From a virus (lineage: Duplodnaviria > Heunggongvirae > Uroviricota > Caudoviricetes): 56,879 nucleotides of DNA. Location of the stretch: the IMG/VR virus record IMGVR_UViG_2541047887_000008. One strand, 5' to 3'. Below are positions 39,001 to 45,000 of this stretch, one piece after another; within the stretch, counting starts at the first letter, position 1, and each line of letters begins with the position of its first letter. The position numbers were made by a program.

Positions 39001-42000
39001 CAGACAGATACATCCGTGCGAACTGATACATCGTTTCTGTATTCCGTAGTGGAGATGATGATTTCGTAACTAATCATGGGCGAACCTCCTTGTCAGAACC
39101 ATTCAGCCTGGAATCAACAAGTGCAGCGCCAAAAACAGCATCACCAACACGGTCGTACAGTTTGCTAGCCAGCGGAGATTCAACGGCCTTAAGCATTGGA
39201 TAAAGCTGGCTTGTCCAGATTTGATGGATTTCACGCAAATGCAGGTATACGCCTCTGGCGTTTCGTGCGACAGCTGACATATCAGACGCATCGGCACCTG
39301 ATAAACTCTTCTCCATCAGGTTAAAGGCGTTGATGTATGCCTCTTTGAACCGGGCTGCACGTTTGCCAGTAAAGCCCATAGCAAGGAACGCGAAGCCATC
39401 ACGGGTGATTTGATAGCAAGGTAGTTTGCGGCCTGTGCAATCGGTGTAATCACTCACCGAAAAATTGCGGGCAGTGAATGATGCGGAGCATTCAAGCGTG
39501 CGGATCTTTTTCAGTACATCGTCATGACGCTTGGAGAAGAAGTTGGCAACAGCCAGGGATGAAGTAACAGCCTGACCATCAACGATGGCAATTTCAGGTT
39601 GAGTGAGGGTTGGGATCGTAGCCATGATGGCAGCCTCCGTTGACTGTGGAAAACTTCCACCACCGGAGCTGCGAAACTCACTGGTGGCAGACTGAACAGG
39701 GTTCGCAGTACCGGCGTCAACGGAGACCGGCGAGCCTTTCGGCTCCCCTGCCCAGCCCACCATAATTCTGGCGTGCGTGAGCGCGGACGATAAAAAAGAC
39801 GCTGGCGCGTCATATATCGCCGTTGACAATTCCGGGCTGCGACCCCCGGCACCCGCTTTATAAGGTGCAGAGACAGTGTAACGTCCCGAAATTGCAGAAT
39901 CAATATTTGGTCTTGAAATGATCATATAGCTGCTGATATCTTTAGAACTGTTCTTGGATGTTTCGGAGCCGTTTTATGCGAAACAGCTCCCCGTTATTGA
40001 TGTTGAGTGAGCCGGGTTACTCCCGGCTTTTTTTCACCGCTGCCAACCAATAACCTGAAATAACCCCATTTTCGGGTGATACCAGCGAGTCCCTCGCGGT
40101 TCTGCTTCCTCCATAACCCGATAAAAAGCAGCCATAAACGGTTCCACAGCAACAATTGCGCGACGTGACAACAATCCGTCCGGCGTCATGAACTCATGGG
40201 TGTCTGTAGGAATCTGATAGGCGTTCACCAGATTGCGGCATTTATCATCTGACAAACCGGTTTTTGCTTTCAGTTGGCGATATCCGGCATAGCCCTCACG
40301 AATAGTGCCCTTTTTAATTTGCTCGACTGTTTCAGCAACGTGGCTGACTTTTTCTTCCACCTGAGTGATCCGTTTCTGTTGGCGAACGGCTTCAAGAGCC
40401 ATCGCGGCAACCATTTCGATTTCGCTCATTGGCTTACGGATCTGTTCTTCCAGTTCGCGCCAGCGATCTACCAGGCGAGCAGTGAATTCAGGACAGAGCT
40501 GTGCGACGACAATGATGCTGTCGCGCTTACCTTGTTCTCCTTCAAACAGGTAATGCTCATATTGAACTTTAAAACCTAAGTTATTGATTCTTTCGGAAAC
40601 CTCAATTTGAGGAGACCGGACAACGCCACCTTTGGCTAATGTTTCAATAGTGCGTTTCACATTGTCATGACGTTTACCCACCAGCTCTGCGATCTCAACG
40701 CTGGTCATGGATGCTTTGCCGTTAAAAATTGCGGTGTTCATTGTTGGTCTCCTGTGGGCTTGTCATCTTCTGTATTCGCTAGACTTGGGTGTGTATATGG
40801 AATGCTCGGATCCAGATGACAAAGAATGGCAACATCCTCCGGAACACCTCGCGTTTTCCACTTTCCAACACCTTGACTGCCACGAGGCCTTCCTTTCTTT
40901 GGGAACCTGCGACCAATAGCGGCATTGGTTTTAAATTGAATTTTTAATATTTCATAAAGGGTCATTCTTTAGTCTCACACCAGATACTTTGTTATCCAAC
41001 GATGTTAACCACGGGAATCCAAAGTATCAAGAAATTCTGTTACTTTAGTATCAACAGCCATGAGAGGAGAAGAAAAATGAAGTCTTTAGGTGAACGTCTC
41101 ATCAACGCACGGCAAAAAGCTGGGTTAACACAAGATGCGTTGGCTAAAAAAGCTGGGATCACCAGAGTTGCAATCAGTAAAGCCGAGCAAGGCCTTACAA
41201 AAAGTTTCAACGGTGACACCCTTTTTAAAGTTGCAGCTGCACTGCGGTGTTCACCGCAGTGGCTTCAGAACGGAGATGAAAAAGATAAGCATTGGGAAAA
41301 TAATGTTAAGAGCTGCCCACAGAGAGACACAGCACACTCTTACCCTGTAATTAACTGGGTTCAGGCAGGATTATTCGCAACTTCTGGTGATGACTACAAC
41401 ATGTATGATCAGGATAATTGGAGGCATTCTGTAAAATACGCTGGTGAGAGGGGGTTCTGGCTGGAAGTGCACGGAGACTCAATGACTTCGCCCGTAGGAA
41501 TAACATTTCCTGAAGGAATGTCGATCCTTGTCAACCCAGATAAAGAAGTTTTTTCAGGGTGTTACGTCATCGCCAGAAAAAAATCGACCAATGAAGCAAC
41601 ATTCAAAAAATATATTTCTGACATGGGAAAGGCGTTTCTAAAGCCCCTTAATCCACAATATCCAATCATAGAAATGGACAATGATTGCGAAATAGTAGGT
41701 GTTGTGGTTGATGCCAGGTGGGATATTTTCTGACCAGACACAAAACACAAAAAGAAACCAAAGTATCAAAAATCACTTGCCACACCTTGATACCTTAGTT
41801 ACCATAAAACAAAGTTCGTAACTGAGGTATCATCTCATGATCAATAAAGCTACAACTCTTGACTGTCTCGAAGAACTGAAAAACCTCGGCAGCCTCATTA
41901 CACTAATAGCAAAAGCAACACCTGATGCTACGCTCTCTAGCGATATAGAGTCATGCGCAGGACTGGCATGGGATATGACAAATAGCATATCCAGAAAGCT

Positions 42001-45000
42001 ATCGTCAGCAATGCTTTTACAGAACAAAAATTCTGCAATCAACAACCGTCTTCGCACCCAACGCGAAGCCTGCGGCTTAACAACCGCCGAACTCGCCAGG
42101 CTGCTCGATCTCGATGAAGAAATTATCATCCAGTGGGAGAGCGGAGAGTATGAACCAACTATCAGTATGCTTATCCCACTGGCAAATATTCTTGGCTGCG
42201 ATCCGATGTGGCTGTTAACTGGTGAGGTTACTCCTCCGGAGCAACCAAAAAGTGAGGAGCAGCAACACCATGACGCATCTCAACAAGTTTGCCCCTTATC
42301 TCGCGAAGCTCTTCTGCGGAAGAACCAATACCAATAGTGACATAATCGCCGCTTCGCCCTTCAAGGTACATGCGAACATTTTTATCAATCATTGCGGAAA
42401 CAGTCTCAATATGAAAACACTTCTGAGACTCGCTATATAGCAGAACATATAAGTCAGCTGAGGAAGCCATGAAAAAGTTCGAAAACATAACTGTTCTCCA
42501 TGTTGATGACTTTGATTATACAAACCCGGAACTTCTCCCGGAGGTTGTAAAGGCAATAGATGTTGCCGATATAGTGATTAGAGAAAAGAGAATTGTCAAA
42601 AACAGGCTCGCATGCACTTCAGGAGCAATGACAGAAACAACCTCACAGCAAGATAATTACGAAGGCATTTGTCTGGAGCCTGATTCATTTGCGGTAAATG
42701 TTTATCATTTATTGCATGCAACACAGGTATTACATATGTCCAGTAATCACGAAACGAAAACACTCGGCAGCGAAATTCTGAGTTTTGCATGTGAGTATAC
42801 AAAAGCTGCTGCCGAAAAAGAATTAGCGCAATAACAACAAATATGCCCTGAACGTTTATTGCGGTTTTATCGCCGGGGATTGTTACAACCTTAATCCACA
42901 GGAGGCTTTATTGTGACTTTTATAAAGAATATGGCATCACACAAGACCGCCTGCCTTATTGCACAATACGGTGAAAATTACATGCATATTGCCTGCTTAT
43001 TTCTGCGTAAAGCATACGGGAGATAATAATGCATCAGAAAACAGCAGAACACGAACAAACCAGAATATTGCTGACCATCAAAAACGGGAAAGTAATATTC
43101 ATTCGCCATGTTCATGACGATGAACTTGTAGGAACTCTTTCAACATTCCTGTTTATTGCAGAAAGGGCAGGATATGACGTTATTGCACCAGCAGATGAAG
43201 ATGAAGATGAGGAATAAATATCATGCAATACGATGAATTCCAGGCTGAAGCAACAGCCAATGGTATACGAACTGGCAGTATGACGATTGATTATCACGAC
43301 GCCATACGTCGTCTGGATGCCGGAGAATTCGATACTCCTAATGTGCGAGGTTTACGTATCCTTCAGTGTCTGGCGCAAGCCGACGAAGCAGGATTACTGG
43401 GTAAACTTCCGGTTGAGATGAAGGTTGCTCAGTGGCGATGGTTGTATGTGACGACATTCATCAACGAAGAAGAAGACAAGAACGGCACAATTGATATCCT
43501 GAATGAACACGGAACAACTGAACACGCCGTGGTATATAACGGGATGTATGGGTTTATGACGATATATCCCGGCCCCATTCGATTTGCCTTACAACAGTAT
43601 ATTGAATGGAATTTAATTCAAAAATACGGCGAAGCTGAAGGAATGGGAAGAGCGCTGTTTCTTTATCAGAAAATGCTCACTACTTCCCCTGATAAAGGTT
43701 TCATTCTTTCAGATATGGGTCGAGAAGGGCTTGAAATCCTTCTGGATGAAATTATTAACGAAATGAATACTCATGGCATGCAATCCGAAACAGATATTAA
43801 GTAAAAGGGACCACATGACCGTTATCGAGTATATCCAGGAAAATCCAGATTGCAGTAGAGAAGATATATCCCTCGCACTTGGAAGAAGCGCAACTTCTAT
43901 CAGTAATGAATTATCACGGTTATTGTGGAATGGGTTAATAGTACGAACTGGAGAAAAAAACAAAATGATTCTGTACTGCGTAAACAATCTGCCGTTTGGA
44001 TACAGCAATCCCCTAAGTGTTATGTTCAACCAGTTACTTAAACAGGTAAGAAATGGCAACTGACTCACAACTAACCATAGAAACGGCCCTGAATGTCGGC
44101 CTGGCGCTCCTTGGTTATTTTTACATCGTGTTCTGCAGCGGACGGTGGCTGTCGCTGTTGTTCCTGAAAAAATGGAATAAACGCCGTAAGCAGGATGAAC
44201 GCCAGAAGGCAATGAATGCGTTTTCCGAAGCCTTCGGAATTGACGGCATGGAACCAGGGGATCCAGCTCGCGCAATCAGCAGAGGGGGTGTAGTAATCCT
44301 TGTATATCGGAGTGAAGAGAAAAATGACGATCACAAAACAACGAGTAGAAAAAATCATATATCGCCATGAAATGGGACTGAACAGCGATGTCACTGCCGA
44401 AGAGGTTTATGACCTGGCTGTACTGGCGCTGAATTTATCAAATATCGCAAACCTGAAGCGATACGAGCTTGATATGGATGGTTGCGACTCGTGCGGTCAG
44501 GATTGTGGCGCAGATATGACTGAAGATCCTGATGGTGATTATGTCCTGTTTGATGACGTGGTTAAGTTGTTTGAATTTGATACAACCACTCAAAAGTTAG
44601 AAATCCCGGCAAAGGAGGCTGCCAGTGAGCAAGATTGACTATCAGGCACTGCGCGAGGCGGCGGAACAGGCAACGCAAGATGAATGGGTAGCATATATTT
44701 GCCGGGTCATAACGGCATTTATCCTGCGCGCACGTCTGAGGGTAGGCATTGCGGATACTTTATTGACTGGCCTGGCGTCTGTCAGGGGCGGGAGAGCATC
44801 AACATGAGCATCAGAACCTACGCAGTGAATTGCAATGACGCATGGCTAAACACCGAAGGTGATGACATCTCCGGCTCATACGTTAAGTACAAAGACCATC
44901 AGGAAGTGGTTGCCGCTCTTGAGGCCAAGTGCGCGGCGCTGGCAGCGGAGAATGCGGGAATAAAGTCTGCAATTCCAGAATCACGGGATATTGAGGATGA

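Follow-up and report, generated by a model that had tools for sequence, protein, structure and literature searches.

The 56,879-nucleotide stretch of phage DNA discussed here (IMG/VR record IMGVR_UViG_2541047887_000008, Caudoviricetes; hereafter the window) comes from a lambdoid, phiP27-like prophage of Escherichia coli integrated next to yecE. Directly after its cI repressor gene lies an open reading frame (ORF) of 166 amino acids (aa), ORF166. We are fairly confident that ORF166 encodes a regulator of the XRE fold that is under selection, controlled by the leftward promoter PL and linked to the immunity type of the phage, and that it is not an analogue of the lambda antiterminator N. It probably tunes the switch between lysis and lysogeny, either by binding a conserved DNA target or as an anti-repressor resembling MOR. 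It is an obvious candidate for a component of that switch: it is strongly selected, always sits beside cI, and joins a variable half matched to immunity to a constant helix-turn-helix (HTH) domain that is atypically acidic.

The initial annotation described a 166-aa protein with a C-terminal HTH domain of XRE type and an unrecognised N-terminal part, and both parts of that description stand. Residues 72-126 are recognised by Pfam HTH_3 (E 3.7e-11; 43.3 bits, with the cut-off at 23), and residues 1-70 have no Pfam match at all. Structural matches of the HTH include P22 C2, 434 and C.AhdI. AlphaFold lays the protein out as a two-helix hairpin, a five-helix HTH and a disordered tail; the mean confidence score (pLDDT) of 10-residue blocks over residues 11-70 is about 75-88, and a second AlphaFold2 run with a multiple sequence alignment returned the same topology without improving the model. 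The N-terminal hairpin is probably a dimerisation and specificity domain. Peptidase_S24, which matches the neighbouring cI at 4e-22, has no match in ORF166, so by that test the protein is not an SOS-cleavable repressor of the LexA/cI type. Nor does it belong to the NCBIfam DicA subfamily NF007257, which it matches at 49.2 bits against a curated cut-off of 101 and in the HTH region only. RefSeq holds an identical ORF as WP_021556323.1, a "helix-turn-helix domain-containing protein", and ORF166 is L10 of phiP27 (CAC83528); phrog_4739 matches residues 1-166 at 7e-98. None of the records for L10, phrog_4739 or WP_021556323.1 assigns a function, and no paper in searchable open-access PMC and bioRxiv cites these accessions or PHROG identifiers. 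The "Clade VIII CI" proteins with two HTH_3 domains (PMC8951638) may belong to the same family.

The position of the gene is very stable. Without exception it follows an S24-type cI, on the same strand and at a distance of 100-150 bp, in six annotated phages, in 80 IMG/VR loci (the best-matching 80 of 245 matches) and in a relative only 32% identical (locus L094). The annotated carriers, phiP27 (L10), Shiga toxin (Stx) phages of types Stx1 and Stx2, ASU11 and phi467, all have it directly after cI. Of 5426 complete E. coli genomes, 326 carry the 767 bases around ORF166, and in many of them the match is 100% identical. A scan of GTDB species genomes returned unrelated Firmicutes HTH proteins only. 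The immunity region as a whole is 94% identical to that of the Stx2e phage phiP27 and 87-88% identical to those of several Stx1a and Stx2a phages of O145:H28.

We do not think recent exchange alone explains how well the HTH is kept. Across that domain the proportion of synonymous differences (pS) is 0.66-0.69 and that of non-synonymous differences (pN) 0.07-0.10, giving a ratio of about 0.05, equal to that of cI (dN/dS 0.05 against Stx1_14040). Because synonymous divergence reaches 0.69 with non-synonymous divergence of only 0.07-0.10, the conservation of the HTH is, as judged from these substitutions, the work of strong purifying selection. The N-terminal domain of the window's type, type A, has a dN/dS of 0.21. 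Recent exchange has occurred too: three other immunity types include loci whose HTH segment is 99-100% identical to the window's, and the segment just downstream, which holds the tail and the antisense ORF86, is 98-99.7% identical.

These figures bear directly on whether ORF166 is a decaying remnant of a larger regulator with two HTH domains, that is, a deletion product with a random read-through tail. Among homologues of ORF166 the N-terminal domain takes several forms that look unrelated, the HTH is single or doubled in tandem, and the tail varies. Most have two HTH domains (the common forms are 216-230 aa), and the window copy has one. That single HTH ends in the HTH2-type sequence CDPMWLLTGE and then continues with the tail found after HTH2 in the homologue P0034, so the window form is most simply explained by an in-frame deletion between HTH1 and HTH2. 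It carries a hybrid junction, IPLANILGCDPMWLL, and looks like the product of a recombinational deletion of this kind. The junction, the missing HTH, the existence of frameshifted 200-aa variants in the family and a tail free of constraint are what one would expect of decay. However, dN/dS values of about 0.05 for the HTH and 0.21 for the N-terminal domain are not, and three independent immunity types (the phiP27 type, the phi467 type and that of the window) frequently have intact forms with one HTH. The identical ORF is also kept in more than 100 complete genomes. We therefore consider a remnant very unlikely. An exhaustive protein search also found very long proteins of 703-2332 aa (P0139, P0147, P0142), in which 8-12 HTH repeats of XRE type stand in tandem and share about 30% identity with the HTH of ORF166.

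The two halves of the protein vary in different ways. When N-terminal domains and cI N-terminal domains were clustered at 55-65% identity over 83 loci, five clusters of one paired one-to-one with five clusters of the other with zero discordant loci. The same five immunity types have unrelated operators, yet their HTH domains share about 90-100% of amino acids, and the junction between variable and constant sequence falls exactly on the domain boundary in all types. The immunity cassette thus consists of cro, the right operator region OR, cI, the left operator region OL and the N-terminal domain of the ORF166 family, and it is flanked by two conserved stretches, the DNA encoding the HTH on one side and the 5' end of a Rha-family gene on the other.

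The control region suggests how such a gene would be expressed. The initial annotation reported a short operator-like region and no rex-like genes after cI. Both observations were right: cI ends at 41733 and is followed by 103 bp carrying three copies of the repressor operator and a PL-like promoter, and then by ORF166. The motif GATAC-N4-GTWWC occurs exactly four times in the 56.9-kb window against about 0.4 expected, at 41039, 41754, 41789 and 41818, all within the two control regions. Adding two looser copies of the motif gives three sites at OR and three at OL. Relative to PL, one OL operator lies upstream, one over the -10 element and one over the Shine-Dalgarno sequence GAGG (41824-41827). 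Two of the operators also form an inverted repeat. In RNA read through from cI this would fold at about -20 kcal/mol (z -5.9) with the Shine-Dalgarno sequence buried in the hairpin. The predicted leader of the PL transcript, about 25 nt from a start near 41811 to the ATG at 41837, begins inside the hairpin sequence and is unstructured (z +1.05). On this folding model a read-through transcript from cI would hide the ribosome site of ORF166, and we infer that the protein is made from PL only, when cI leaves OL on infection or induction. The hairpin is not conserved in the distant locus L094, so its weight in this argument is moderate.

This arrangement is what makes it improbable that ORF166 is an accessory gene expressed in the lysogen. 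The rex genes of lambda and nun of HK022 occupy an equivalent neighbourhood, and ORF166 could be their counterpart, co-transcribed with cI from the maintenance promoter and acting, for example, in phage exclusion or in the control of host genes. It is on the same strand as cI, 103 bp downstream, and no intrinsic terminator is predicted between the two. Against this, the gene has its own promoter, flanked and overlapped by three cI operators, and the -20 kcal/mol hairpin would sequester the ribosome site in precisely the read-through RNA on which the idea depends. PADLOC and NCBIfam return only generic HTH matches to ORF166, below their family cut-offs.

The slot of ORF166 is that of N, gp24 and Nun, and this naturally raises the possibility that it is a functional substitute for N, promoting terminator read-through by way of RNA polymerase, Nus factors or Rho without any nut RNA. 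The initial annotation had argued that the first gene after cI is an HTH protein and not an N-like antiterminator, and that no arginine-rich N-like protein is evident. The present results agree with it on both points. ORF166 has the XRE fold and no N-type match, no credible early ORF has an arginine-rich motif, and none of the 19 early ORFs scanned matches an N-type PHROG or Pfam family. ORF166 has no similarity to antiterminators in Pfam, PHROGs, NCBIfam or the PDB. The whole protein has a net charge of -9 and an isoelectric point (pI) of 4.68, and its richest 20-aa window holds 4 arginines, inside the HTH. The search for nut elements that the same annotation proposed gave no exact boxA in the early regions and no boxB-like hairpins on the early sense strands, where about 1 was expected. 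9-mers resembling boxA with one mismatch, including the site at 41931 inside ORF166, occur at chance frequency and were discarded. Rfam gives no nut-like or put-like match, although whether it includes a put model was not checked. There is no space for a put RNA of the HK022 type between the predicted PL start and the ATG. Since the PL leader is only about 25 nt long and the stop codon of the cro-position gene overlaps the start of the next gene (Rha), the classical positions of nutL and nutR, or of put, do not exist in this phage.

It is conceivable that an acidic protein-binding surface could serve antitermination, and the rightward early operon does have a terminator-like site at 39811-39798 in the isrK/C4 region. 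However, position is the main thing the idea has in its favour. The protein has neither an arginine-rich motif nor similarity to antiterminators, no nut or put element accompanies it, the terminator-like sites on the plus strand of the left operon are few and weak, and the fold is that of a standard Cro/C1 HTH. We regard an N substitute as highly improbable. The phage does have a canonical Q antiterminator at 32722-33417 (Pfam Phage_antiter_Q, 1.5e-83). It is important to realize that a layout without N is already known, from phiP27 and its relatives and from the Eru1 Stx phages, which lack N, CII and CIII (PMC8044961). The inference in the initial annotation was reasonable and is not new.

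If ORF166 is neither an antiterminator nor an accessory gene, what does an early XRE-fold protein do? We tentatively put first the idea that it acts as an early DNA-binding transcription factor with a conserved target outside the operators, and rank an anti-repressor second, mainly because of the prior for an HTH fold. In the proposed scheme cI would leave OL on infection or induction, PL would fire, and ORF166 would be made as the first early-left protein. A dimer would then bind a DNA target common to all phages of the group, or one in the host, but not OL or OR. Its role would be that of CII or of a secondary regulator in the lysis/lysogeny circuit; we propose such a role because the phage has no cII homologue, and neither Pfam Phage_CII nor a cII-like PHROG matches any of the other early ORFs scanned. 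ORF166 itself is matched by phrog_4836, labelled "CII-like regulator", over residues 49-138 at 1.4e-40. The invariance of its HTH across immunity types with unrelated operators, the purifying selection on it and the read-through hairpin also speak for this scheme.

Several observations weigh against this transcription-factor scheme and should be stated together. The HTH has a net charge of -7 and a pI of 4.2, compared with +4 to +9 for the domains of the phage's own cI, P22 C2, 434 cI and Cro, and DicA. A set of 303 related HTH domains has a median charge of +1, and just 12 of them reach -7 or lower. The helix-3 start of ORF166 reads D-E-E, which aligns with Q28/Q29 of 434 and S31/N32/V33 of P22 C2, the residues that contact bases in those repressors. 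A hunt for a conserved DNA target of the invariant HTH yielded no candidate site. The 5' end of the Rha gene (40680-40745) was considered as a PRE-like target and dropped, being missing from 9 of about 82 gene-bearing loci and having no sub-motif that recurs. Pfam Phage_CII does not match ORF166, and the "CII-like" label of phrog_4836 is an annotation and not an experiment. Finally, a transcription factor leaves the tracking of immunity type by the N-terminal domain unexplained.

Most full-length relatives of ORF166 are acidic as well. In favour of the transcription-factor scheme, some distant family members have an ordinary recognition helix, STQAVSLWE, with a net charge of +2. The initial annotation implied that the protein binds the operator repeats, and this part of it was not supported. 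An HTH that hardly changes between five immunity types whose operators are unrelated is unlikely to read OL or OR, and the strong acidity of the domain and its D-E-E argue in the same direction. They also make DNA binding in general uncertain.

The acidity and the immunity-linked N-terminal domain are better accounted for by an anti-repressor or adaptor that works through protein contacts, by analogy with MOR. In that scheme the hairpin would recognise the cognate cI (or Cro), and the acidic XRE domain would plug the basic DNA-binding face of the repressor or bind a host factor common to these phages. Expression from PL would then provide positive feedback once cI falters and a sharper commitment to lysis. 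The one-to-one pairing over 83 loci, the junction on the domain boundary, the retention of the acidic D-E-E HTH under a dN/dS of about 0.05 and an expression doubly locked by three operators and the hairpin over the Shine-Dalgarno sequence all fit it, and in other alleles the same operon also encodes paralogues of the N-terminal domain as separate small proteins (L08 and the 74-aa ORFs discussed below). However, cI and the N-terminal domain are only 100 bp apart, so their perfect co-variation may be mere linkage within one recombination cassette. MOR is a 72-aa single domain encoded in the cro slot, with 11% identity, the type-A domain of the window has no detectable free-standing paralogue, and the phage already has anti-repressor-like genes of the Rha family with C4/isrK control RNA. 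We hold this possible but doubtful. Its most specific version is a two-part, immunity-specific anti-repressor or adaptor in which the rapidly diversifying hairpin would recognise cI or Cro and the invariant, DNA-mimicking acidic XRE domain would block the DNA-binding face of the repressor or pass the repressor to a host factor; this we think a little less likely still.

Table 1. Elements of the immunity region and early-left genes, in window coordinates
Feature	Coordinates	Strand	Details
Cro-position gene, 75 aa	40738..40965	-	ORF list; phrog_4749 6.9e-49; first gene of rightward early operon; divergent from cI across OR
OR region, three operator copies	40966..41076	.	Copies at 40983-40996, 41015-41031, 41039-41052
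PR-like promoter, leftward	41030-41002	-	TTGATA-17-TAACAT; in OR region
cI repressor, 218 aa, LexA-like	41077..41733	+	Pfam HTH_3 2e-14 and Peptidase_S24 4e-22
OL/PL control region, 103 bp	41734..41836	+	Operators at 41754-41767, 41789-41802, 41818-41831
PL-like promoter	41777-41805	+	TTGCCA-17-TACCAT; -35 at 41777-41782, -10 at 41800-41805; predicted start ~41811
Inverted repeat of two operators	41788..41832	+	Repeat search; 93% complementary; 15-bp hairpin in cI read-through RNA
ORF166, 166 aa	41837-42337	+	Next same-strand ORF after cI; GAGG 9 nt upstream of start
ORF166 residues 1-68, N-terminal helical hairpin (type A)	41837..42040	+	Immunity-linked variable domain; AlphaFold2 helices 4-27, 31-78
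ORF166 residues 69-130, XRE/Cro-C1-type HTH, acidic	42041..42226	+	Net -7, pI 4.2; recognition helix begins D-E-E
ORF166 residues 131-166, tail	42227..42337	+	Predicted disordered, pLDDT <50; overlaps 3' end of antisense ORF86
ORF86, 86 aa	42228..42488	-	Convergent with ORF166; phrog_6104 1.4e-49; own GGAG ribosome site, TATAAT box upstream
L08 homologue, 121 aa	42469..42834	+	phrog_5451 1.7e-83

The gene order of the prophage, taken from E. coli SF-088, is lysis genes, Q, replication genes, two Rha-family genes, cro, cI, early-left genes, xis, int and yecE. RefSeq and phiP27 annotate cI as a LexA family protein or a putative lambda repressor (L11 in phiP27). Two small genes follow ORF166. RefSeq does not annotate ORF86 in strain SF-088. 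Its homologues in E. coli, E. albertii, Salmonella and Citrobacter are 59-97% identical and share an unchanged core, DLYVLLYSESQKCFHIET, and it is kept as an ORF in ASU11 at 79% nucleotide identity. Within the overlap with ORF166, substitutions against distant copies divide into 24 synonymous and 29 non-synonymous in the frame of ORF86, and into 7 and 46 in that of ORF166. Because these counts favour the minus frame, we take ORF86 to be the real gene there and the tail of ORF166, as far as sequence can tell, is incidental and dispensable. We rejected the idea that ORF86 is a conserved functional partner of ORF166. An unrelated gene takes its place in phiP27, and an unrelated, Zn-ribbon-like ORF of 89 aa does so in L094. 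The position is filled by unrelated small genes from one relative to another and so resembles a slot for cargo more than the place of a partner.

The L08 homologue is a different case. Residues 69-115 of L08 (47 residues in its C-terminal half) share 43% identity with the type-C form of the N-terminal domain (BLASTP 2e-10 against P0093), and iterative hidden Markov model (HMM) searches group L08 with N-terminal domains of types B, C and E. The RefSeq call covers just the final 68 aa. Since the distant L094 also has the N-terminal extension (L094:5140-5499), we take the 121-aa form to be real. Homology of the type-A domain to L08 or to the other hairpins was considered and rejected: hhalign gives a probability of 0.4, and a type-A HMM finds no free-standing ORF. 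In phi467-like relatives, which have an Eru1-type replication module, a single-HTH gene is followed by ORFs of 74 aa and 63 aa (L063:4386-4798, L006:4368-4780), and the 74-aa ORF falls into one hairpin-domain family with L08 and the N-terminal domains of types B, C and E. Neither the 63-aa nor the 74-aa ORF matched members of the ORF166 family in BLASTP.

On the other side of the cassette, the first 65 or so nucleotides of the Rha gene (40680-40745) are nearly invariant in nucleotide sequence across immunity types, whereas the remainder of the gene shows synonymous variation. Of about 82 related loci, 9 lack the stretch. Its invariance suggests a recombination linker that bounds the immunity cassette or an overlapping cis element. 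A second Rha-family gene lies at 39074-39640 on the minus strand (Phage_pRha 5.7e-30). Just upstream of it, at 39680-39868 on the same strand, Rfam places a C4 antisense RNA (78.8 bits) and isrK (58.7 bits), and the terminator-like site at 39811-39798 falls here. The unit looks like an anti-repressor control of the P1 immI or Gifsy-1 isrK type, set in the rightward early operon. The 283-aa ORF called at 39074-39925 probably reaches too far and runs over these RNAs. On the plus strand between the two Rha genes, and so opposite to the early genes, there is a TG-extended promoter-like site (39913-39942) and then a strong terminator, GAGCCGGG...CCCGGCTT TTTTT (40009-40029); an antisense RNA of about 80 nt is possible. 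Farther away the window holds an STnc100 small RNA (139 bits) with three tRNA genes at 29293-29809 on the minus strand, in the late-promoter region downstream of Q, and an IS009 RNA match (225 bits) at 408-606 on the minus strand, at its left end.

The ORF166 allele alone is in about 6% of complete E. coli genomes, and the group includes phages that convert their hosts to Stx1, Stx2a, Stx2d and Stx2e. The choice between lysogeny and lysis in these phages, which have neither N nor cII, determines the release of Shiga toxin. If the anti-repressor or adaptor scheme is true, these prophages, a group widespread among E. coli and Stx prophages, would have a commitment step of positive feedback driven by PL, and the paralogues that consist of a hairpin alone (L08 and the 74-aa ORFs) would act in trans to modulate other prophages in the same cell. 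If ORF166 is an ordinary accessory regulator only, the finding is routine annotation.

ORF166 can be compared with several known systems. With N of lambda, gp24 of P22 and Nun of HK022 it shares only the slot of the first PL gene; it is acidic and not basic, has a Cro/C1 HTH fold, lacks an arginine-rich motif, and has no boxA, boxB or put, or a leader that could hold one. Its HTH has the fold of 434 and P22 C2. However, the DNA-binding domains of P22 C2 and of 434 cI and Cro carry +4 to +9 where ORF166 carries -7, and ORF166 has D-E-E at the positions of base contact. Its oligomerisation part is N-terminal and helical instead of a C-terminal S24 domain, and its HTH is invariant across immunities. 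Like lambda CII, ORF166 is an early-expressed HTH protein of a temperate phage, and there is no other cII candidate here, but it is encoded in the leftward operon and CII in the rightward one, with no Phage_CII match and no PRE-like target found. MOR of TP901-1 (PDB 6tri) is an XRE-fold anti-repressor of a single 72-aa domain, encoded in the cro position, 11% identical and without an N-terminal hairpin.

The architecture also resembles that of SinR/SinI and of the induction modules of a transcription factor and a small ORF (TF-smORF), in which an XRE factor activates an adjacent, counter-oriented small ORF whose product inactivates cI (Silpe et al. 2023, PMC10432266). As in our family, these systems have an XRE regulator with a two-helix multimerisation domain and free-standing homologues of that domain (here L08 against type C, 43%), and the TF-smORF modules also place the XRE factor beside small ORFs near cI. 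The domain order of SinR is reversed with respect to ORF166, and the type-A domain has no detectable free-standing paralogue. ORF86 is adjacent and oppositely oriented, but it is convergent and not divergent, overlaps the 3' end of ORF166, and has unrelated genes in its place in phiP27 and L094. In phiP27, L10 is the same gene. It lies at the same position after cI (L11), behind identical operators, and is 97% identical in nucleotides from the end of cI to codon 129. The window diverges from 42224 onward. L10 is 138 aa long, its short tail is not that of ORF166, and the antisense gene that follows it, L09, is another gene than ORF86.

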